NCBI GenBank assembly: GCA_963651465.1
Contig: CAVJPS010000016.1
Coordinates: 293-64,292 of the forward strand
DNA length: 64,000 nt
Direction: 5' to 3'
From: a bacterium
Lineage (GTDB): Bacteria; Bacillota_I; Bacilli_A; RFN20; CAG-826
Below the pieces are notes generated by a model. The model was not told where the DNA came from. It searched no databases and was given only the letters and a program-made list of their open reading frames with translations. The translations under genes were made by a program, and so were the position numbers. Shown piece by piece: positions 1-63,292 of the stretch; positions within the stretch are counted from its first letter, which is position 1; the number at the start of each line of letters is the position of its first letter.

Positions 1-138
1 TAACGTCGTGTGCTTACTAAGCTAAAGCGCAGCTATAATTTGATCTTTGTGTGCCATTTAATTGGCTTTTGGTGATAACGTCACCACTCGACTGCAGTTA
101 AAGCATTACCAATTCCTGTCGAACCCAAAACTGTCCCA
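1..138 (-). ncRNA. ssrA: tmRNA (ssrA), 5' portion; the 3' part lies off the left edge of the window
   Basis: The reverse complement starts GGGACAGTTTTGGGTTCGACAGG, the canonical tmRNA 5' acceptor/T-arm half (GGTTCGAC). An internal tag ORF follows after GCCAATTAAAT: GGC ACA CAA AGA TCA AAT TAT AGC TGC GCT TTA GCT TAG TAA. This gives (A)GTQRSNYSCALA with a double stop, resume codon at 55-53 and stops at 19-14. The segment is more GC-rich than its surroundings. Confidence 0.75.
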
Positions 139-247
139 TGAATTAATAAAGTACACCTTATTGGTGCACCTTATTTTAACACATTAATTATTTATTTCAA
201 ATAAATTTGTTTTTTAATTAAATATTGTTAAAATAAAATTAATAGGG

Positions 248-991
248 ATGGGATATAATATGTGTTTTATTACTAATAGTTTTATAAAGAAAACTCGCTA
301 TGAAATGGGATCACTAGATTTTTCTATTGAAGATAAAAGTCAATTAAGTCAATTACTTTTCCATCAAGTTGTAGTATATATATTATTAACATTAAAACAC
401 ATTACTGATGTTAATATTGTTAATTCACATTACAACTGGGTATTTAATCATTGGGATAAAATAGAAAGAGCATTTCTTCATCCTAAATGGAAGAAATGTG
501 AAGAACCTTATTCGGAATTAGATGTAGAAATAAATGATTTTTTCTATACTAACCGTCATATTGTTACTAATATTTTCTGTGACGATTACTCTAATTTATA
601 TTTTGATGGACAAATCCATATTGATAAGTTAGATAATTTAAAACATCCCGAAAATCCATTTGAAGTCGTTGATACTGATAAAGGAAGTTTAGTCTTTACA
701 AAAGAGTACTTAACGAAGACAAGAACACACGGACATTTTGATATAGACCAGGCTATTGCTAGATGTATCAATCTTTGTGTTAATACAAAAAACAACAAAT
801 ATATTTCATACATTATATATAAAAATGGCAAAACAGTTTATGACATTAATGTTTGTAATGCTGTTAAAGAACATATTGAAAAATTAGTAACGACAGAAAT
901 ATTAGATGAAGCTACTAACGAAATAGAATTCGCTTTAAAAGTAAGTGCCCTTAATTATATATTTACGAAAAATCGCCCACATAATATGTAA
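248..991 (+). CDS. Hypothetical soluble protein, 247 aa, no recognisable motif; the true start may be the ATG at 260
   Basis: Long ORF in a very AT-rich stretch. A GGGA element lies 6 nt before the ATG at 260. The gene is convergent with the TIR gene and shares one bidirectional terminator with it. No TM segments or catalytic motifs that I can name. Confidence 0.55.
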   Translation: MGYNMCFITNSFIKKTRYEMGSLDFSIEDKSQLSQLLFHQVVVYILLTLKHITDVNIVNSHYNWVFNHWDKIERAFLHPKWKKCEEPYSELDVEINDFFYTNRHIVTNIFCDDYSNLYFDGQIHIDKLDNLKHPENPFEVVDTDKGSLVFTKEYLTKTRTHGHFDIDQAIARCINLCVNTKNNKYISYIIYKNGKTVYDINVCNAVKEHIEKLVTTEILDEATNEIEFALKVSALNYIFTKNRPHNM

Positions 992-1014
992 CATAAATAA
1001 AATGCTATTAAATA

Positions 1015-1050
1015 CAAAAAGAACCTATTTTCAATATTAGGTTCTTTTTA
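1015..1050. terminator. Bidirectional rho-independent terminator between the convergent genes
   Basis: Stem AAGAACCTA (1019-1027) pairs with TAGGTTCTT (1038-1046), flanked by an A-run upstream and a T-run downstream. Confidence 0.7.
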
Positions 1051-1066
1051 ATACTATCTATAAATA

Positions 1067-1540
1067 TTATTTTTCTTTTAATCTTTTTATTAATTGTTCT
1101 GCAAATAACAATGATATTTGATCACAATTTTTAAAATTCGACCATTCAAGTACTTGTATTGCAGCTAGGTCAGGATATCTATTTTTAAATTCATCTATGC
1201 TTACTTTATATAAAATAGGTAAAACTATTTTTTGACCAGTTCTATTTTGTCTATTTAATAATTCTTTTAATTCTTTTTCAGTCCATTCTCTACCAAAATA
1301 GTTTTTAGAAATAACAATTATAGCAAATTCAGATTTTTCTAATCCTTCATATATTTTGCTTTTCCAATTATCTCCCCATTTAAAAACATCCTTATCGTAA
1401 AAAATATTTATATTCAATTTTGATAAAGATTTATATAAATCATTAACAAATCTAATCTTATCTTTATTGGCGTGAGATATAAAAACATCATAGTTTAATA
1501 ATTTTTTATTATTAATACTTTTTGTATTGTTATCTTCCAT
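1067..1540 (-). CDS. Stand-alone TIR-domain protein (157 aa)
   Basis: YDVFISHANKDK is the hallmark TIR beta-A motif. It is followed by IFYDKDVFKWGDNW and AIIVISKNYFGREWTEKEL (conserved W and Glu region). The whole protein is essentially one TIR fold. SD AAGGAGA lies 10 nt upstream of the ATG. Confidence 0.85.
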   Translation of the reverse strand: MEDNNTKSINNKKLLNYDVFISHANKDKIRFVNDLYKSLSKLNINIFYDKDVFKWGDNWKSKIYEGLEKSEFAIIVISKNYFGREWTEKELKELLNRQNRTGQKIVLPILYKVSIDEFKNRYPDLAAIQVLEWSNFKNCDQISLLFAEQLIKRLKEK

Positions 1541-1589
1541 GTTTTTATATTCTCCTTACTGTTAAAAATAATTTTATATTAATTACTAA

Positions 1590-2543
1590 TTATTCTTTCA
1601 TTGCTAATGATGCTGCTCCAACAATACCAGCATCATTACCAAAATTAGAAACAACAATCTTAGCGTGAGGAGTATTCTTTAATCCCCATTCTACACTATC
1701 TAAATATTTTTCTAATCTAGAGGTTAAATTTTCTTTTTGTCCTGATAAACCTCCACCAATAATTAAACATTCTGGTCTAAAGATATTTAATATTGATCTA
1801 ATACCTTCTCCTAAATATTTAATATAATTATCCACTACCATATTAGCAGTTTTATCACCTTGTAATGCTGTTTCAAAAGCAGTTCTACCATTAACTTGAT
1901 TAATATCATCTAAACAATATTGCCACATTAATGATTTCTTATCTTTTTCCATTGCTTCTTTGGAGTCTCTTATTAAAGCTGAGACTGAAGCATATGCTTC
2001 AAAACAACCTTTATGACCACAGCCACAATCTTTTCCATCAACAACTAAAGTCATATGGCCAAGTTCAGCGCCAGTAAATCCTTCTCCTTCGTATAATTTA
2101 CCATTAATAATTATACCCCCACCAACACCAGTACCTAATGTAATTAATACTAAGTTTTGGTAGCCTTTACCTTCACCAAATTTATATTCCCCCATAATAG
2201 CAGCATTTGCGTCATTACAAATATAAGTAGGTATTCTCATATCTTTAAACATTTCAACGACAGGAACATTACTCCACTTAATATTCGGAGCATTTAATAC
2301 AATTCCTTTTTCACTATCACATACTCCAGGGCAACCAATACCAATACCACTTAATTCACTTAATCTTACTTTTGAAAAATTACACAATTCTTCAATTTTT
2401 TCTTTCATTAAGAAAATAACTCTTTCAGGAGAATTACTATTATAATCAACACGCAATATAGACTTATTGATAATTACCCCATTCGAATTAAGAAGGCCTA
2501 ACTTAATTGACATTCCACCAACATCGATTCCAATATAATACAT
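1590..2543 (-). CDS. glcK: ROK-family glucokinase
   Basis: N-terminal IGIDVGGMSIKLG ATP-binding motif. ROK zinc motif CGCGHKGCFEAYAS. Length 317 aa. Confidence 0.85.
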   Translation of the reverse strand: MYYIGIDVGGMSIKLGLLNSNGVIINKSILRVDYNSNSPERVIFLMKEKIEELCNFSKVRLSELSGIGIGCPGVCDSEKGIVLNAPNIKWSNVPVVEMFKDMRIPTYICNDANAAIMGEYKFGEGKGYQNLVLITLGTGVGGGIIINGKLYEGEGFTGAELGHMTLVVDGKDCGCGHKGCFEAYASVSALIRDSKEAMEKDKKSLMWQYCLDDINQVNGRTAFETALQGDKTANMVVDNYIKYLGEGIRSILNIFRPECLIIGGGLSGQKENLTSRLEKYLDSVEWGLKNTPHAKIVVSNFGNDAGIVGAASLAMKE

Positions 2544-2608
2544 ATTATTATCTCCCCTTTTTTATTAATTAATATACTTATACTTATAGTATAAAATGAT
2601 TTTTTACA

Positions 2609-2637
2609 TAAAAAAAGAAGAAACATCGTTTCTTCTT
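2609..2637 (-). terminator. Rho-independent terminator after the 158-aa membrane protein gene
   Basis: GAAGAAAC / GTTTCTTC stem with a 3-nt loop. A T-run follows on the minus strand. Confidence 0.7.
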
Positions 2638-2652
2638 TAAAGATTTTATAAA

Positions 2653-3129
2653 TTAATTTTGTGAAATTAATCTCTTAATTGCAAAGACTAAAGATGTAAC
2701 AAATCCTACAATACCAACGATTGCACCAATAATTGGTCCTACTCCGTTTGAATAATTAGTAGAAGCTACTGAACCATTTGCAGCACAGAATCCTAACTTA
2801 TTGCAGAATAATAAGATAAACGATGCTAAGAAACATGCAACTGTAATAAATGGTAATGCTTTAACACGTGGTGCAACAACAAATAAGACAGCACCAATAA
2901 GTGGTAATAAGAATCCGATTAATGCAACAACGTTAACATTAGTATATGCATTATTAAGTGATTTCATTCTATAACCACCAAAAACATTATAAATGCCCCA
3001 TACCTTATCGCTTCCGCCTAAAGCACCTTTATAATAAATAGCAGTTGGGAAAATCATTGCAGCAATAACAACCGCAAATAAACAAATTAAAACAGTGCCA
3101 ACTACACTTCTTCCAGTATTTTTACTCAT
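2653..3129 (-). CDS. Small polytopic membrane protein (about 4 TM), paralog of the gene at 3259-3750
   Basis: Hydrophobic segments. Shares the N.VA.IGF.L.LI and G.GPII motifs with its neighbour. SD GGAGGT. Confidence 0.7.
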   Translation of the reverse strand: MSKNTGRSVVGTVLICLFAVVIAAMIFPTAIYYKGALGGSDKVWGIYNVFGGYRMKSLNNAYTNVNVVALIGFLLPLIGAVLFVVAPRVKALPFITVACFLASFILLFCNKLGFCAANGSVASTNYSNGVGPIIGAIVGIVGFVTSLVFAIKRLISQN

Positions 3130-3211
3130 AAGAAATACCTCCGTCTAAATTATTATATATTTTATGTAAAATATCTTCAATATTTTTTGTTATTTATTGT
3201 GTTTAAAAAGC

Positions 3212-3240
3212 AAAAGAAAATCGCTCCTGAGGAGCGATTA
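3212..3240 (-). terminator. Rho-independent terminator after the 163-aa membrane protein gene
   Basis: AATCGCTCC-TGA-GGAGCGATT hairpin followed by a T-rich run on the minus strand. Confidence 0.7.
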
Positions 3241-3258
3241 AAGTACATATTACAATAC

Positions 3259-3750
3259 TTATTTTAATGCTTTGTATGTGCCATATACACCAACTAATGC
3301 ACCGACACAGTTTAAAACGCCAGCGATAATTGGACCAGCACCCATAACGAAATTCTTTGAAGAATCAGCATTATAGTTGATTGTTGCATAAGATTTAACT
3401 GATAAGAATGCTAAGACAGCACCAGCAATAAATGCTAATGTTGGTAATACAACAGCGACAGCACCTTTCTTTTTAACTAAGACAACAATAAGAATGTATA
3501 CTAATACAGCAATTAATGCTAGGAAGAAACCTAAGAATGCAACTGTATTGAACTTAAGTATTACATTACCATCACTATCTTTAGAACCGAATGTGAAAGC
3601 TGGGACTTCAAAATTAGTACTAGCTTCAACACCAAGAATTGTTACTACGTATTTACCTGCAGGTACAAAAACCATACAAGCTGTTGCAATAGCAATAACT
3701 AATAATAATAGAGGGATTAAGAAATTAAATGATTTTGATTTTTTTGCCAT
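3259..3750 (-). CDS. Small polytopic membrane protein (about 4 TM), paralog of the gene at 2653-3129
   Basis: Same topology and shared motifs (GAGPIIAG versus GVGPIIGA). SD AAGGAGA. Confidence 0.7.
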   Translation of the reverse strand: MAKKSKSFNFLIPLLLLVIAIATACMVFVPAGKYVVTILGVEASTNFEVPAFTFGSKDSDGNVILKFNTVAFLGFFLALIAVLVYILIVVLVKKKGAVAVVLPTLAFIAGAVLAFLSVKSYATINYNADSSKNFVMGAGPIIAGVLNCVGALVGVYGTYKALK

Positions 3751-3785
3751 TTTTATATCTCCTTTTCTTTATTTTAAACCTTTTT

Positions 3786-3824
3786 AAAAAAAAATAAAAT
3801 ACCGACCATTTTAAATAGTCGGTT
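3786..3824 (-). terminator. Rho-independent terminator after the 116-aa ORF
   Basis: ACCGAC / GTCGGT stem followed by a long T-run on the minus strand. Confidence 0.55.
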
Positions 3825-3902
3825 ATTATAATAAAAAATAAATATAAATGCTTAATGGCTTATCAATTATAATAAAAAATAGTATAATCGTATTTAGATA
3901 TA

Positions 3903-4250
3903 TTAATCACCGTAATCGGAACCTCTTGATTTGTCCTCTACATAGATGCCTAATTTATCTGTAATATCAAATATTTCTAGATAAATAAAATCATCTACGT
4001 GAGTACAAGGTTGCTCAAAATCACCCGTAAAGATAACGCGTTGATTCTTCTTGACTAAACGTTCCATTTCATTTAATATATCAACAATACAACTTGGATG
4101 TTGTTCTTTAAAACCTCTTAATTGAGTATAAAACATTGGTTCTATATAAAACATTGATCCATCGTTGTAACGATATAAAGTTGAAAAAGGGTTTTGTGGG
4201 TCTTCTATGGCTTCAAGATTTTTCCAGTCATCGTAGAGTTTCACATTCAT
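3903..4250 (-). CDS. Hypothetical acidic cytoplasmic protein (about 115 aa)
   Basis: ORF with its own terminator, divergent from the HAD gene. No motif recognised. Confidence 0.5.
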   Translation of the reverse strand: MNVKLYDDWKNLEAIEDPQNPFSTLYRYNDGSMFYIEPMFYTQLRGFKEQHPSCIVDILNEMERLVKKNQRVIFTGDFEQPCTHVDDFIYLEIFDITDKLGIYVEDKSRGSDYGD

Positions 4251-4315
4251 CACCTGCCTTTATTTATTATACTAATTGTATTGTTTTTTACAATAAATGA
4301 AAGGAGAAAGTACTG

Positions 4316-5107
4316 ATGGAAAAAGATATTAAAGCGGTCATTACCGATATCGACGGAACATTATTTTCTCACTCGACGCATCAAGTTCCCCCAAGTGCGA
4401 TTGAAGCAATAAACAAATTACAAGCTAAAGGAATTAAAGTATTTCTTTGCTCTGGACGTAATGCTTATTTAGTTCGTAAACTTGGAGTACTTGAGCATAT
4501 TACCCCAGACGGTTTAATTACCATGAATGGTGCTAATGCTATTATTGATGGTAATATTATTTACCGTTACCCTATGCCAGAGAATGAAATTGATTTATTA
4601 ATTAAGTTCTCTAAGAGGCTTCGTTTTGGTTTAACTCTTATTGAAGAAAAAGAAGGACATATTAATTATGTCGACGAAAGAGTTATTGCAGCTCACGAAG
4701 ACTTTGGTACTCGTTTCCCACAACCACGTTCATATCCTGATCATTATGATCGTCGTGTTTATCAAGCTATTGCCTTTGTTGATGAATTAGATGAATCACT
4801 ATTTGCACCACATTTAAAAGAATGTAAATGTGCAAGATGGCATCAATACGCTGTTGATATTATGCCTAAAGATAGTGATAAATCAAAAGGTGTATTAGCT
4901 GTATTAGAATACTTCGGTTGGCAACCTGAAAACATTATGTGTTTAGGTGACAACATGAATGATGTTGAAATGTTGAGTTTTGCTGGCATATCTGTAGCAA
5001 TGGGTAATGCTCGTAGTGAAGCAAAAGCAGTTGCAGATTATGTAACTGATGATGTTGATGAAGATGGATGGGCAAATGCTATCAAACATTTTGGTCTTAT
5101 CGATTAA
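4316..5107 (+). CDS. HAD-superfamily Cof-type (IIB) phosphatase
   Basis: Motif I ITDIDGTLF. Motif IV GDNMNDVEML. 263 aa. SD AAGGAGA. Confidence 0.85.
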   Translation: MEKDIKAVITDIDGTLFSHSTHQVPPSAIEAINKLQAKGIKVFLCSGRNAYLVRKLGVLEHITPDGLITMNGANAIIDGNIIYRYPMPENEIDLLIKFSKRLRFGLTLIEEKEGHINYVDERVIAAHEDFGTRFPQPRSYPDHYDRRVYQAIAFVDELDESLFAPHLKECKCARWHQYAVDIMPKDSDKSKGVLAVLEYFGWQPENIMCLGDNMNDVEMLSFAGISVAMGNARSEAKAVADYVTDDVDEDGWANAIKHFGLID

Positions 5108-5165
5108 GTAGATAACTACTTGTGTCTATTATAGAGGCACTTTTGTTATCTACTTTTTGTTTTAA
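5108..5165 (+). terminator. Rho-independent terminator after the HAD gene
   Basis: AGTAGATAAC (5108-5117) pairs with GTTATCTACT (5145-5154), followed by TTTTTGTTTT. Confidence 0.6.
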
Positions 5166-5284
5166 AAAATAATATTTCATACGGAAATAATAAATAGTAA
5201 GTCTATTACAGTTTGGTTAATACTTTTATTCTTGAATAAAAGTGCTGAATAATATACAATAATGTAGAATGCGAGGTTATAAAA

Positions 5285-6508
5285 ATGAAAGTTACACAAC
5301 AACCTATTAAAACTGAAAAAATGAATAACCAAGCAGCTGCTCCTAAAGCATCTGTTAAAGGATTATTCAAAACACTTATAAGCAACCAAGCATGTGTTGA
5401 CTCTGCTATTAATCATAAATGGTGGGTTGCTCTTCTCTTCTTTGTTGCTTCTATGGGATTATCAATTATTCCTTCAACTGTTAATACTGCTACTACACGT
5501 GGTGATAATATTCTTACAAATTATCCTTATTCTGTAGATGTAGGTTTAGAAGATTTCAGCCGTAAACTTAATGGTGAAGTATATGATTCAACAACTGAAT
5601 CAAGATCAATTGATAGTGAAAAAGTAGTTAATTTTGTTATCTCTCCTGATGAGAACGGAACAAATAAGTTATCAATTGACGATACATCATTAACAAATCT
5701 TAACACTTATGTTTTTACTGAAAAATTAACATATTCATTAGAAGATGGTACAGTTGATAATTACAAATATTATGAATACTCTACTACAACTGGTGAATAT
5801 GAAGAAGATAACATAACACCTAAAAAAGCCGCTCGTTTAAGAGTCTTCTATATTGCAGATGATCCAGCAACTGAAAATGATGAAGCTGCTACATTTGCTC
5901 GTTTTGATCCACTCTTTGGTATTGAAATGCCAGATTTAGCTACTGACCACGTTGCTTACAAAGCTCCTGCTTCATTATTAGTATTAGGTACAAATTCATT
6001 CTTCTTTGTTAAATATAATACAGCTGCTACAACAAGAGCTGGTTATATGAATGTTTATAGTGGTGACTATGTTAATACATCATTAATTGACGGAAAATAC
6101 AATTTACGTTTATTAGCATACGCAGATGGTGTTACTGATTTAACAGCTACCGAATTATCATTTACTGAATTAGCATCTTCTCAATGGTTAAGTTTCTTTG
6201 AAAATGGTTATAAGACATTAAGAAATAGAACAACTCTTGTAACATTCCTTGTAACTCTAGGAATGAACTTCGTTTTAACTATATTATTCGGATTTACATT
6301 ATGGATTATGTGCCGTGGTAAGAATAATCCAAACCGTCATTATAAGTTCCACGAAAACTTATTCATGGCTTTCTATGCATCATTAACTCCAGCAATCTTA
6401 ACAATTATTGTAGGATTTATGTTCCCACAAATTGCTTCATATGCATTTATTGCTGTAATGGCTATCCGTTTAATGTGGATGTCAATGAAAACATTTAGAC
6501 CTCAATAA
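5285..6508 (+). CDS. Membrane protein: N-terminal TM, about 250-aa extracytoplasmic region, C-terminal 3 TM bundle; unknown function
   Basis: Hydropathy pattern read from the translation. SD GAGGT. Confidence 0.65.
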   Translation: MKVTQQPIKTEKMNNQAAAPKASVKGLFKTLISNQACVDSAINHKWWVALLFFVASMGLSIIPSTVNTATTRGDNILTNYPYSVDVGLEDFSRKLNGEVYDSTTESRSIDSEKVVNFVISPDENGTNKLSIDDTSLTNLNTYVFTEKLTYSLEDGTVDNYKYYEYSTTTGEYEEDNITPKKAARLRVFYIADDPATENDEAATFARFDPLFGIEMPDLATDHVAYKAPASLLVLGTNSFFFVKYNTAATTRAGYMNVYSGDYVNTSLIDGKYNLRLLAYADGVTDLTATELSFTELASSQWLSFFENGYKTLRNRTTLVTFLVTLGMNFVLTILFGFTLWIMCRGKNNPNRHYKFHENLFMAFYASLTPAILTIIVGFMFPQIASYAFIAVMAIRLMWMSMKTFRPQ

Positions 6509-6524
6509 CTTTAGTAAACAAAAT

Positions 6525-6563
6525 CAAAAAGCATATGGTATTTAAAATCATATGCTTTTTTTA
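6525..6563. terminator. Bidirectional terminator between convergent genes
   Basis: AAAAGCATATG / CATATGCTTTT 11-bp stem, with A-rich flank on one side and T-rich flank on the other. Confidence 0.7.
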
Positions 6564-6580
6564 TATATTGTAATTTTAAG

Positions 6581-8794
6581 TTATAAACTTCTTTTCATAA
6601 TTCTACAAATACTTTTATTCTTATTCTTTTTAAATATATATAAATAACATAATAAGTTAAGTGTTAAATCTAGAATTAATAGAAGCAATATATATGGGAC
6701 TGGTATTTCAAATTTGAAAAAACCAGCTGGAATAGTATTATAATAATCAATAATACCAATTATAAATAATACTAATATTCCTATAAGTGATACAAACATT
6801 GATATAACAAAACTAATAAAGTTTTTGAGAACCATATATTTTTTTATCACTTTTTGTGGCTTACCAAACGTTAATAATATGCCGATTTCCTCATTACTAT
6901 TTCTAATAATATTTAAATATTCTTTAAAGAAATTACATAACATTATAGAAATTAAAATAGCGGCAACAAAAATAAATATTAATCTATAAGGCCTAAATTC
7001 ATTATATTCAGCATATCCCAATTTAGTGTATACACCAACAAATAATAAATTATGACGAATTCCCCATTTGACTACTGAGCTTTTAGTACTAATTCTAATA
7101 TCTTCCGCTTCAAAATAATGGGCATAAGAATATTTAATTGTTGAGTATGCTTCTTCATTAAAGTATGATTTATATTCTGCTTTACCATCATCTACTACAC
7201 CACTGATACTAATAGAATCAAAATCAAATAAAGGATTATATAAAGTAGAATTTAATTGATAATCCTTCGGAGAGATACTGTAATTAAAAGTATTAGCTTT
7301 TGTAGTCCCTTTAATATAATCATATAATGCTTTATTTACTAAAAATTCATTTTTGTTATTAGGTATGTTTCCTAGTATTAAATTATCATTAATGAAAGAG
7401 TTTAATTCTATACTAATGAATGAATCAATATCATCAGTAATAGATGGATTAACAAATAACGAAGCATTTATTTCGTTTATGTATTTAGAAATATCTCCTA
7501 TATACATACAACCGTATAATTTTGAACCATAATACTGAACTTCATCTACCCCACTATTGTTGTATCCTAGGCTATTTACGTCATACTGGTCAACATTAGT
7601 TTTATAATATCCTGAAATACTATATGTATCACCAAATATTTCAACTGTCGATAAACTTTGGTCTAGCAAGTATTGGTAATAGCAATCTGAAATTAAAACC
7701 GAGTTATTTGTTGGTAAAGTTCCTTGAATAATTTGTAAGTTTTCTGGTATAGTATCACTTATCTTTCGAGTAACATGAGTTACACCAATAACTATTTCAT
7801 CAACATCTATATAACTATATGTTTTATATTTATTCTTTACTTCCTTAAAATAACAACCGTTATCAAAATAAGAATCAGATCCATTTGAGTAATTAATTTG
7901 GCATATTTTCATATATTCTTTATTAACGTTATTAGAAATAATAATATTTAAAGATTTATAAGTCATACTACATATACATAAAGTGAAAAATACCAATATA
8001 CTATTCAAAACTATTTTTAATATTTTAAACAAAAGAGAGTCTTTAAATATTGCTTTATTTATTAATTTAAAATCATTTTGAGTTGATTTTATTTCTTCCT
8101 TTACATTATTTTTTTCAAAAGGTATATTGCTTTCTTCAAAACCTTTAAATGATTTTATACATCCATCTTCTAATTTAATAATATTTGTAAGATATTCTTT
8201 AATAATCATTTCACTATGAGTGACTATAATAACCAAACGTTTCTTAGATTCTTCTACTAATAAATCCATTATAATTTTTGTATTTTCTTCATCAAGGTTT
8301 CCAGTTGGTTCATCGCATAGTAAAACTTCAGGTTCTTTTAATAAAGCCCTTATCATTGAGACTCTTTGCTTTTGTCCACCAGAAAGATACTTAATAGGTT
8401 TATTTTCGTATTCTTTAAGATTCATTCTTTCCAAATATTCTCTAACTTTTTTGATATCAAGTTTATGATTAGCAACAATTTCTAAATTTTCTAATATAGA
8501 TAAATTATCAAACAGCTTATAATCTTGAAATATAAATCCAATTTTATCTCTCCTAATGATTTCGTTTACTTCATTATCATTAGTTATATCAATATCGTTA
8601 AATAAGTATTTGCCAGAATCAAATGTCTCTATTAAACCTAATATATTTAAAAGAGTTGTTTTGCCTGATCCACTTGTACCTACAATTCCATACATTCCAG
8701 TATCGTTAAATGATAACGAAATATTAAATACCCCATATTTTTCTTCATCAACTGAATTATCGTAGGTTTTATTTAAATTAATAAGACTTATCAT
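6581..8794 (-). CDS. Fused ABC ATPase + FtsX/MacB-type permease (737 aa)
   Basis: Walker A GTSGSGKTT. Signature LSGGQKQR. Walker B LLCDEPTGNLD. H-loop VTHS. Then TM, a large extracytoplasmic domain with G.LP....E motifs, and C-terminal FtsX-like TMs. Confidence 0.85.
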   Translation of the reverse strand: MISLINLNKTYDNSVDEEKYGVFNISLSFNDTGMYGIVGTSGSGKTTLLNILGLIETFDSGKYLFNDIDITNDNEVNEIIRRDKIGFIFQDYKLFDNLSILENLEIVANHKLDIKKVREYLERMNLKEYENKPIKYLSGGQKQRVSMIRALLKEPEVLLCDEPTGNLDEENTKIIMDLLVEESKKRLVIIVTHSEMIIKEYLTNIIKLEDGCIKSFKGFEESNIPFEKNNVKEEIKSTQNDFKLINKAIFKDSLLFKILKIVLNSILVFFTLCICSMTYKSLNIIISNNVNKEYMKICQINYSNGSDSYFDNGCYFKEVKNKYKTYSYIDVDEIVIGVTHVTRKISDTIPENLQIIQGTLPTNNSVLISDCYYQYLLDQSLSTVEIFGDTYSISGYYKTNVDQYDVNSLGYNNSGVDEVQYYGSKLYGCMYIGDISKYINEINASLFVNPSITDDIDSFISIELNSFINDNLILGNIPNNKNEFLVNKALYDYIKGTTKANTFNYSISPKDYQLNSTLYNPLFDFDSISISGVVDDGKAEYKSYFNEEAYSTIKYSYAHYFEAEDIRISTKSSVVKWGIRHNLLFVGVYTKLGYAEYNEFRPYRLIFIFVAAILISIMLCNFFKEYLNIIRNSNEEIGILLTFGKPQKVIKKYMVLKNFISFVISMFVSLIGILVLFIIGIIDYYNTIPAGFFKFEIPVPYILLLLILDLTLNLLCYLYIFKKNKNKSICRIMKRSL

Positions 8795-8809
8795 ATTTTA
8801 ATCCTCGAC

Positions 8810-11035
8810 TTAATTCTTTACCCATGAAACAATATTATTTTTTCTTATCTTCCAACAACTTATATATGTAATGATTAGCGTACTAATTACTAATAAAATC
8901 ATTGGTAATAAAAATTTTCCAAAACTAAACTTTATTACATTATATATTATTGTACTTTTTGTTAATAAAGATGTAACCTCATTTATCGCTTTTATTAAGA
9001 AATACGATACAATAAATGATGGTATTGATAATATCACAATATAAAAAAAATATCTTATTGTGATACATAAACTCATATCTTTCTTTTTAAATCCTAAAGA
9101 TAAAAGAATACCAATATTGCCTTTTTGATTCTTAATTAATGTACTTATATCTTTGAGTAAATAAGCCACAACAAATATACAATTTAAAATAGAAAATATC
9201 CAAAAGAACCCCAAGTAATAATTGATGTTTATAAAAATATTATTTATATCTGTTGAGTACATACTCGATAGTACGATACTAGGGTTATCATATGCTTTAT
9301 CAAAGTTTGATATAGGTAATTTATATATTCCACCACTAAAACAATCACAATAGGTTTTGTATGCAATATTAAAAGCATTATCCATTAAACAAATAGCATT
9401 TGTTTGCTTATAACTGGTAGGCAAATCAATTACACCTACTATTTTAATGGAGGAAAAATTTAGAAACAAGGTATAACTATTTTTGAGTTGTTCGAAATAA
9501 TTAATATAATAATTTTCTTCATAATTTGTATTATACAACTCTTCATAAGAGATACCTAATTTTTTTCTATAAAATTCACTAATTAATATCTCATTGTCAG
9601 TCTTAGGCATTCTCCCGTTTAATAGATACTTCGAATATTCATCTTCTATTTTTATGATGTTACAATAAGTTCTTTTGGAACTATCTTTTTCCAATTCCTT
9701 TCCTATATCCTTTGCTAAAATATTATTTACAATAATGTAATCGCGGTAATTATTCAAAATATAATATATATCATAACAATACAAAGTTCTTATATAATAA
9801 GCTCCATCATGTGAATCGATTTTTTCACTCACTTCACCATATTTAAAATCACATTTATAATATCCACATATTTCATAATTTGTACCACCAAGATTAATAA
9901 TATTATTATAATTATTTTCTTCATACACATAATCAGTAACAATTACTTCATCTTGAGTTTGTGGTAATCTTCCTTCTAAAAGTTTGTTTTCATCAAACCA
10001 TTTAACATCAGAAAGATAATACCAAATAGGCCATATTGAATCATCACGTTCCGACTTAATACTATATAATTCCTCTAATTCACCAAATTCATTATTAATC
10101 TCATTAAAGGTATACCCTTCAGTGTATTCATGATCATTAGAACGGTTGTACTTAATATAAATACTATCTTCGTTATTGTATTGAAATGTATCGCGAATTG
10201 ATTCTTTATTATTTGCAGACTGTATTGCCAAAGAGGAAGTAGTGAAAGCACACATAAAACAAAGTACAAATATAAGCCCGAAATTTTCTAATGGGCTGTT
10301 TTTAACAATTTTTTCACTAACATAGCACATTTTTTTTACACTAGATTTTTTCCTATTTATAGATATGTTAGAAGCAGTAATATTTTCATCTATTATTTTG
10401 TCTTGGTTTAATATTGTTCCATTTTTGATATTCAAAATATTATCAGCGTATTTTTTAGTAAGTTGGCTATCATGAGATACAACAATTACCAAAATATCTT
10501 TAGATAATTCTTTTAAAATATTCATTATTCTTTCGGTATTTTTAAAATCTAAATTTCCAGTAGGCTCATCACAAAGTAAAACTTTTGGAGATTTGATAAT
10601 TGCACGAGCAATAGCAACTCTTTGCTTTTGACCCGCTGATAACTCATTAATTAATTTATTTCCAAGTTTTGCCAATCCCCATTTACTTAACGTACTGTCT
10701 ATATCAACGTAAAATTTTTCGTTCGTGCATATTTTAATATTTTCAATTACAGTTAAATTCTCAATTAATTTAAAATCTTGAAATATGTAACCAATGTAGT
10801 CCAATCTTAATTGTTCAATGTCTTCATTTTTTAATTTATTAATGTCTAACCCGAAAAATTGATATTCTCCATCAAAAGTATCAATTAATCCAAGTACATT
10901 TAACAATGTTGTTTTACCAGCTCCGGATTCTCCATTGATTATATACATTCCTTTTGAATCAAATGTGAAATTTATATTGGATATACCGTCACAAGAATTA
11001 TCATATATTTTACTAAGACCATTTAGTTTAATCAT
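8810..11035 (-). CDS. Fused ABC ATPase + FtsX/MacB-type permease (741 aa), paralog of the downstream gene
   Basis: Walker A GESGAGKTT. Signature LSAGQKQR. Walker B LLCDEPTGNLD. H-loop VSHD. Same domain order as 6581-8794, with a 15-nt gap to that gene. Confidence 0.85.
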   Translation of the reverse strand: MIKLNGLSKIYDNSCDGISNINFTFDSKGMYIINGESGAGKTTLLNVLGLIDTFDGEYQFFGLDINKLKNEDIEQLRLDYIGYIFQDFKLIENLTVIENIKICTNEKFYVDIDSTLSKWGLAKLGNKLINELSAGQKQRVAIARAIIKSPKVLLCDEPTGNLDFKNTERIMNILKELSKDILVIVVSHDSQLTKKYADNILNIKNGTILNQDKIIDENITASNISINRKKSSVKKMCYVSEKIVKNSPLENFGLIFVLCFMCAFTTSSLAIQSANNKESIRDTFQYNNEDSIYIKYNRSNDHEYTEGYTFNEINNEFGELEELYSIKSERDDSIWPIWYYLSDVKWFDENKLLEGRLPQTQDEVIVTDYVYEENNYNNIINLGGTNYEICGYYKCDFKYGEVSEKIDSHDGAYYIRTLYCYDIYYILNNYRDYIIVNNILAKDIGKELEKDSSKRTYCNIIKIEDEYSKYLLNGRMPKTDNEILISEFYRKKLGISYEELYNTNYEENYYINYFEQLKNSYTLFLNFSSIKIVGVIDLPTSYKQTNAICLMDNAFNIAYKTYCDCFSGGIYKLPISNFDKAYDNPSIVLSSMYSTDINNIFININYYLGFFWIFSILNCIFVVAYLLKDISTLIKNQKGNIGILLSLGFKKKDMSLCITIRYFFYIVILSIPSFIVSYFLIKAINEVTSLLTKSTIIYNVIKFSFGKFLLPMILLVISTLIITYISCWKIRKNNIVSWVKN

Positions 11036-63165: not shown

Positions 63166-63190
63166 AAATATTATTATCCTTTAAAAATAA

Positions 63191-63272
63191 AACCACCGCA
63201 CATAGACAAGAAGCTTATGGCTGCTACGTTCCCGTCCTGACCAGGTTCACACTAATCTATCGCGATGGCACA
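63191..63272 (-). ncRNA. ffs: Signal recognition particle RNA, small (4.5S-type)
   Basis: The minus strand reads ...GTGAACCTGGTCAGGACGGGAACGTAGCAGCCATAAGC..., matching the universal domain IV core CCAGGUCAGGUCCGGAAGGAAGCAGCC. The ends (GCCATCGCGATAGA / TCTATGTGCGGTGG) pair and are followed by a T-run. A TATAAT box lies about 7 nt upstream. Confidence 0.8.
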
Positions 63273-63292
63273 AATATTATAACATAAAAGAA

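Follow-up and report, generated by a model that had tools for sequence, protein, structure and literature searches.

The described bacterial TIR proteins nearest in structure to the one treated here are AbTir of Acinetobacter, TcpB (BtpA) of Brucella, BtTir, and PdTir of Paracoccus (PDB 8G83, 7UWG, 7UXU, 4LZP, 4C7M, 4LQC, 7UXR and 3H16). Proteins of the AbTir/TcpB type have, ahead of the TIR domain, about 100–130 amino acids (aa) that form a coiled coil or a membrane-binding region, and AbTir cleaves nicotinamide adenine dinucleotide (NAD+) in dependence on self-association. Among AbTir mutants E208A is inactive, W204A and T205A have lowered activity, and little or no activity is left in G174A and S176A, residues required for head-to-tail assembly; for cyclase activity the most informative position is W204 (bioRxiv 10.1101/2022.05.07.491051). 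A small TIR protein, ThsB, is also found in Thoeris, the known systems of which are adjacent gene pairs that include ThsA (SIR2/SLOG or Macro-TM), and PADLOC lists a further short protein with a C-terminal TIR domain, PDC-S66, as a single-gene candidate for defence. Defence genes can also be embedded in a type I restriction-modification (R-M) locus, as is that of PrrC, an anticodon nuclease effector, in the EcoprrI prr locus. Here these systems are compared with a TIR-only protein of 157 aa encoded in a stretch of 64,000 nucleotides (nt) of contig CAVJPS010000016.1 (GCA_963651465.1), referred to as the window, and with a neighbouring open reading frame (ORF) of 247 aa, ORF-A, that converges on its gene; coordinates are positions in the window unless another locus is named. 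The explanation that we favour, and to which we give a slightly better than even chance, is that these are two unrelated accessory genes in a variable slot which do not form a system, the TIR protein being a stand-alone and probably NAD-cleaving enzyme.

The TIR protein and its clade

An earlier note on this DNA, made from the sequence alone, had described the 157-aa ORF as essentially one TIR domain, and this is borne out by its translation, which holds YDVFISHANKDK, FYDKD..WGDNW and VISKNYFGREWTEKEL. The protein is matched by Pfam TIR_2 (PF13676; 6.3e-22, 78.8 bits against a cut-off of 28) and by Pfam TIR (PF01582; 9.8e-19, 68.3 bits against a cut-off of 21.3), over residues 16–134 of the 157. 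The nearest matches in the PDB are TcpB/BtpA (7.8e-24) and AbTir (6.4e-22), with 7UXR (1.4e-19) and PdTir (2.8e-18) among the further ones, all within residues 15–151. Where the AbTir/TcpB type has its long N-terminal region, however, the window protein has only 14 residues ahead of the TIR domain. There is no hidden N-terminal extension of the ORF, the upstream frame being full of stop codons, and tblastn with eight of the N-terminal domains (N-domains) of its longer relatives found no N-domain remnant in the window.

In the HMMER alignment to AbTir, W86, T87 and E90 of the window protein fall on W204, T205 and E208, and G56-D57-N58-W59 falls on G174-D175-S176-L177 of the BB loop; the WTxxE motif and the G-D of the loop are therefore common to the two proteins, whereas the loop as a whole reads GDNW in one and GDSL in the other. 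W86, T87 and E90 are invariant in 14 homologues, and every column that is invariant across these 14 is kept in the window protein. Since W86/T87/E90 match residues of known function in AbTir, the catalytic core is, by this alignment, intact; of the assembly residues G56 is kept and one differs (Ser to Asn). By analogy with AbTir the protein would be expected to cleave NAD+ in a manner that depends on self-association. The gene also looks intact, as judged from a good ribosome-binding site (RBS) 11 nt ahead of the ATG and from a single synonymous single-nucleotide polymorphism (SNP) across three independent samples. The spacer that separates it from the glucokinase gene glcK contains no terminator-like or promoter-like site, and because of this the TIR gene would be co-transcribed with glcK.

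At least 769 homologues were found among 5.8 billion proteins and the 119 best-scoring, at 55–67% identity, were analysed. Of these, 92 have at least 230 aa and about 80% have 230–270 aa, typically about 250 aa; the extra region, of about 100 aa, is N-terminal. At least three unrelated types of N-domain are fused to the TIR domain in these relatives (P0004–P0122): a helical W..DV type, one with MNFYKLPS... and one with ...EITSRYDGII.... Such swapping of domains around one conserved module is typical of immune sensors. On sequence, the window protein belongs to a clade in which N-domain plus TIR is the usual architecture, and represents its form without the N-domain. The “minimal stand-alone” TIR of the earlier note is thus correct for a TIR-only protein of 157 aa, but not in the sense of a minimal kind of its own. 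Both of the other short members that were inspected are products of disruption: in P0027 an in-frame stop after 68 N-domain codons splits off the N-domain, and in P0034 the 5' end is cut by a serine-recombinase gene, leaving a partial N-domain readable and 229 aa from a GTG.

The best match of the window protein among defence models is PADLOC PDC-S66 (7.8e-40). The match is confined to profile positions 138–265 of 282, and that of the relatives of about 250 aa to positions of about 123–278; none of the N-domain types of these relatives matches the first half of the model. The window protein is a shortened member of a clade that is already listed as a defence candidate. A kinship with Thoeris ThsB, which the earlier note had named among short bacterial TIR proteins, is not upheld: PADLOC ThsB1 does match the TIR part (2.6e-22), but Pfam ThsB_TIR reaches only 19.9 bits, below its cut-off of 21.2, and no ThsA was found among nine flanking proteins.

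The closest relatives are tied instead to type I R-M. In four of the six distinct neighbourhoods inspected (L010, L011, L012 and L021) the TIR gene lies within an operon of the order hsdM-hsdS-TIR-hsdR, and in each of the four its start overlaps the stop of hsdS by 1–4 nt, so that the two genes are translationally coupled. In L010 and L011 hsdR begins 13 nt past the TIR stop or overlaps the TIR gene by 4 nt; L021 has a gap of 447 nt with a short ORF between TIR and hsdR, and in L012 hsdR is not intact. In another neighbourhood (L017) the TIR gene stands at the edge of an island that holds MjaI R-M, GmrSD and a serine recombinase. The window protein shares 55–67% identity with the relatives from L010–L012, L017 and L021, and no similarity to hsdM, hsdS or hsdR is present in the window. 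The long relatives, with their overlapping or near-abutting frames, sit between hsdS and hsdR as PrrC does, but they are TIR proteins where PrrC is an anticodon nuclease; the window protein, having neither hsd genes nor an N-domain, stands outside this arrangement. No description of a TIR gene embedded in hsdM-hsdS-TIR-hsdR was found in the literature consulted. That the clade is repeatedly wired between hsdS and hsdR suggests a TIR which guards the restriction enzyme, in a PrrC-like manner, and the window copy is a natural test case for the contribution of the N-domain to TIR activation.

ORF-A, its neighbourhoods and the slot

As called, ORF-A has 247 aa; counted from an ATG at 260 (MCFIT...) it has 243. 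The latter start is the likelier, since most relatives begin MCxIT..., the gene callers agree on it and a GGAG-type RBS precedes it in related loci. The ORF is intact in three samples, with four SNPs that lead to two amino acid changes. A word-indexed search returned a single relative, of 39% identity, and an exhaustive HMMER search of 1.84 billion representatives with a profile of two sequences yielded 27 clusters. The family was compared with the profiles of Pfam, PADLOC, PHROG, NCBIfam and PDB and has no match in any of them.

A model from a two-sequence alignment was unusable (predicted local distance difference test, pLDDT, 42) and was redone with 22 sequences, giving an AlphaFold2 model with a pLDDT of 92.5 and a predicted template-modelling score (pTM) of 0.84. 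The predicted architecture is an N-terminal helical bundle (residues 6–79), a beta sheet (99–187) and a C-terminal helix of 40 residues (196–237). Foldseek gave no match to it at E<=1e-3; the best E-values were 0.2 (PDB) and 0.27 (BFVD), with TM-scores of about 0.2. The absence of any motif that could be named, as first noticed, is therefore seen in profile and fold searches alike, and the housekeeping fold that had been thought possible was not found, the confident model matching no described fold.

More particular identities were also tried. DUF4488 scored 19.5 bits, below its cut-off of 27, and in only one of the 22 members. An N-terminal nucleophile (Ntn) hydrolase, as the MC... start might suggest, was rejected because the cysteine is not conserved (other members start MITY, MVMIT or MKTS) and Foldseek gave no meaningful Ntn match. 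Most of the 22 aligned members end in a basic-aromatic ...RRF or ...RF after a helix rich in Met, Asn and Ile; ORF-A of the window ends ...NRPHNM and does not have this tail.

The neighbourhoods of ORF-A relatives are varied. In a Clostridia metagenome-assembled genome (MAG) from Hadza gut (L009) the homologue lies in a defence island, in the order type IIG R-M, a 603-aa OLD/AriA-like ATPase, ORF-A, AbiLii and AbiLi, and a cytosine methyltransferase. In L024 it has a helix-turn-helix gene on one side and, on the other, genes of the kind carried by conjugative or phage elements; one of these is PcfJ-like and has matches on 553 plasmids. Besides ORF-A, L009 and L024 share a pair of small genes, of 85 and 82 aa in the former and of 89 and 85 aa in the latter. 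Two labels given by eye in L024 were not confirmed and were not used as evidence: “ArdA-like” (179 aa), with no PDB or plasmid match, and “Bro-N” (280 aa), with no PDB match and matches to unannotated gut-phage contigs only. Elsewhere ORF-A stands beside a mini-RNase III and a trypsin-like protease (L013), an acyltransferase and a SASA esterase (L004), or genes of no known function and a UvrD-like helicase (L007).

L003 and L023 share an ORF-A cassette of about 1 kb, with 77% DNA identity; in one it follows dnaJ and in the other a thyX-like gene, so that the chromosomal sites differ. The arms of the cassette pair strongly (-43.2 and -28.0 kcal/mol, against about -15 and about -13 for shuffled sequences); they have a conserved core, TTTTGAAACTAG, and outer ends that covary, and a run of T follows the right arm. 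Either a small mobile element or a sequence inserted into a terminator hairpin would be a possible reading. As an explanation for the window copy the cassette was rejected, since the core TTTTGAAACTAG is absent from the window.

Locus searches with narrower alignments had given one genome locus and three metagenome loci, and no relatives of ORF-A were found in collections of viral contigs, plasmids and phages. Taken together, a handful of neighbourhoods suggests that the family is carried along by mobile or variable regions, and these contexts are a hint that it may act in defence or counter-defence. ORF-A is thus a member of a rare protein family, found on mobile and defence-rich DNA, for whose confidently modelled fold no match is known.

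The two families do not occur together elsewhere. No TIR gene was found at nine other distinct ORF-A sites in the DNA available, and no ORF-A at eight loci of TIR relatives. A tblastn search with both proteins, against the loci collected up to that point, finds the pair in the window's own species alone (L001 and L002); three ORF-A loci obtained later also lack a TIR gene. A search for conservation of the pair had been proposed in the earlier note, and its outcome is that the orthologues are not found together outside this species. The nine neighbouring proteins tested, on both sides and within about 10 kb, contain no SIR2/SLOG, Macro-TM, caspase-like or other defence match, only generic ABC (ATP-binding cassette) ATPase ones; that no known effector lies near the TIR gene, as had been observed, is therefore confirmed.

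The region between glcK and the gene for transfer-messenger RNA (tmRNA) differs in a sister species (L022), where glcK is followed by a convergent gene for a 365-aa GGDEF protein and then by tmRNA. Its glcK is 81% identical to that of the window, and the upstream neighbours are the same. Since the GGDEF gene stands where the window has ORF-A and TIR, the glcK-tmRNA interval of 1.45 kb is, by this comparison, a slot where genes get replaced. The slot borders, in the window and in L022 alike, show neither an integrase nor repeats. An island integrated at tmRNA was considered and rejected: it is the 5' (promoter) end of tmRNA that borders the slot, whereas att sites usually lie at the 3' end, and neither an integrase nor a direct repeat nor a second copy of a tmRNA end was found.

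Base composition sets the two genes apart. By windows of the same length the TIR gene has 21.5% GC (2nd percentile) and ORF-A 26.6% (30th percentile), the mean of the whole stretch being 28.6%; the interval 138–1589 lies at the 0.6th percentile. The AT-richness that had been attributed to both genes is thus clear for the TIR gene and weak for ORF-A.

Explanations weighed

If the two genes are unrelated and the TIR acts alone, as we favour, the window protein would have lost, or would never have had, its N-domain and R-M partners. It would be transcribed with glcK and would self-associate via the BB loop; the assembled protein would cleave NAD+ to nicotinamide and adenosine diphosphate ribose (ADPR) or a cyclic ADPR (cADPR) isomer. 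Draining of NAD+ would then be a single-gene abortive-infection defence or, less likely, the product would be a signal for a distant effector. Both the NADase activity and the defence role are putative, the former resting on the match to AbTir. A fortuitous pairing and a TIR acting on its own had each been put forward in the earlier note, and the two combined fit the data. Several points weigh against this, however. The neighbourhoods are few, six for TIR and about nine for ORF-A, and several are on short contigs. At the position of AbTir S176 the window protein has N58, and the 14 aligned homologues have Asn or Lys. No functional study of PDC-S66 was found in the literature consulted, where it appears in survey lists only. 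An unregulated NADase would not be expected to be expressed constitutively along with glcK, and recruitment of ORF-A in this species alone would be compatible with the lack of co-occurrence. Lastly, since both other inspected short TIR genes are disrupted long ones, the window copy could itself be a remnant, weak or inactive. In that case it would be the non-functional or decaying remainder of a longer N-domain plus TIR gene after deletion or replacement of an island, with ORF-A as unrelated cargo, and the absence of the N-domain and the usual R-M partners and a GC content that is the lowest in the neighbourhood would be as expected. We consider this unlikely, because the ORF is intact behind a canonical RBS, every family-invariant residue is kept, the catalytic Glu included, and the three samples differ by no more than the one synonymous SNP. 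Further, the N-terminus begins cleanly in the linker, with no frameshift, in-frame stop debris or upstream N-domain remnant.

Alternatively, the TIR could be the synthase of a signal, a cADPR isomer or related nucleotide, for an effector encoded elsewhere in the genome, that is, a Thoeris-like system in trans. This is doubtful, and rather improbable in our judgement: known Thoeris genes are adjacent, the Pfam ThsB_TIR score is below its cut-off, in the closest relatives the coupling is to type I R-M and not to ThsA-like genes, and the effector screen covered about 10 kb on each side. It has in its favour the Trp kept at the W204 position, the PADLOC ThsB1 match together with a weak one to NCBIfam ThcB4, and the lack of an effector nearby. 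It is very unlikely, on the other hand, that ORF-A and TIR are a true two-gene module, in which ORF-A would be a sensor or regulator that replaces the N-domain, an antitoxin-like brake or an effector. The genes are adjacent and have a terminator in common, both are absent from the slot of the sister species and both families occur among defence genes elsewhere; the predicted novel fold of ORF-A, with its long C-terminal helix, would suit oligomerisation. Nevertheless, there is no co-occurrence at any other locus of either family, ORF-A family members stand alone in many contexts, and the convergent orientation means that the two cannot be co-transcribed. ORF-A is not similar to the TIR N-domains, and was rejected as a split-off one (hhalign probability 0.2%); its ordinary GC against the extreme GC of the TIR gene suggests different histories. 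The proposal that the 247-aa protein is an effector or partner of the TIR is thus contradicted by families that do not co-occur, by convergent genes and by a GGDEF gene in the sister slot. There is only a very slim chance that ORF-A belongs to a new mobile-carried immune or counter-immune family recruited as sensor, regulator or brake of the N-domain-less TIR NADase. If this is true, the TIR system would be peculiar to the species, and its partner would be without known relatives.

Layout of the locus and other features

The positions of the features are collected in Table 1.

Table 1. Features of the window and of the loci compared with it
Feature	Position	Strand	Remarks
tmRNA (ssrA), 5' part	1–137	-	Rfam tmRNA, model positions 1–147; cut at window edge; left slot border
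tmRNA/ORF-A intergenic region	138–259	.	Probable divergent promoters
Promoter-like site	200–173	-	TTGAAA-16-TAAAAT with TG; upstream of tmRNA
ORF-A	260–991 (248–991 as called)	+	Soluble protein; rare family; novel predicted fold
Bidirectional intrinsic-terminator hairpin	1016–1049	.	Common to both convergent genes
TIR-only gene, 157 aa	1067–1540	-	Pfam TIR_2; catalytic Glu = E90
glcK-TIR spacer, 49 nt	1541–1589	-	AAGGAGA RBS; no terminator
glcK, ROK-family glucokinase	1590–2543	-	Pfam ROK 4.6e-68; conserved core gene, right slot border
ABC ATPase-permease genes	6581–11035	-	Two tandem paralogues
Small SRP RNA	63182–63276	-	Rfam RF00169, 60.3 bits
TIR-containing type I R-M operons	L010:1–4010; L011:2264–9523; L012:1957–6483; L021:4267–11933		
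Short TIR P0027	L021:7761–8519		
Short TIR P0034	L020:2516–3205		
Slot of sister species	L022:9243–11850		
Defence island around ORF-A homologue	L009:3718–15855		
ORF-A cassette	L003:199–1512; L023:~407–1695		

The tmRNA is cut at the window edge; in a public MAG (L001; GCA_963632345.1), of which positions 1–8001 are 99.7% identical to 8001–1 of the window, it is complete on the same contig (7865–8245, 115 bits). In the intergenic region next to it a plus-strand -10 site of the TGnTAAAAT type was noted by eye near 227–235 and may serve ORF-A; no repeats or att-like duplication were found when looked for in this region.

The two ORFs converge as had been described, and the bidirectional terminator that they were said to share, claimed at 1015–1050, is supported by folding on both strands. 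The hairpin has the form AAAAAGAACCTA-10 nt-TAGGTTCTTTTT, with a stem of 12–13 bp, A5 on one side and T5 on the other. It folds with -12.9 kcal/mol on the plus and -14.0 kcal/mol on the minus strand (z = -4.9 and -3.9), and none of 200 shuffled sequences was as stable; a simple terminator scan had skipped it because its loop is longer than 8 nt.

The two tandem paralogues at 6581–11035, each of about 740 aa, are ABC ATPase-permease fusions with only generic ATPase matches in PADLOC, and their GC of 19–26% is near that of the TIR gene. Close to the far end of the window lies a bacterial small signal recognition particle (SRP) RNA.

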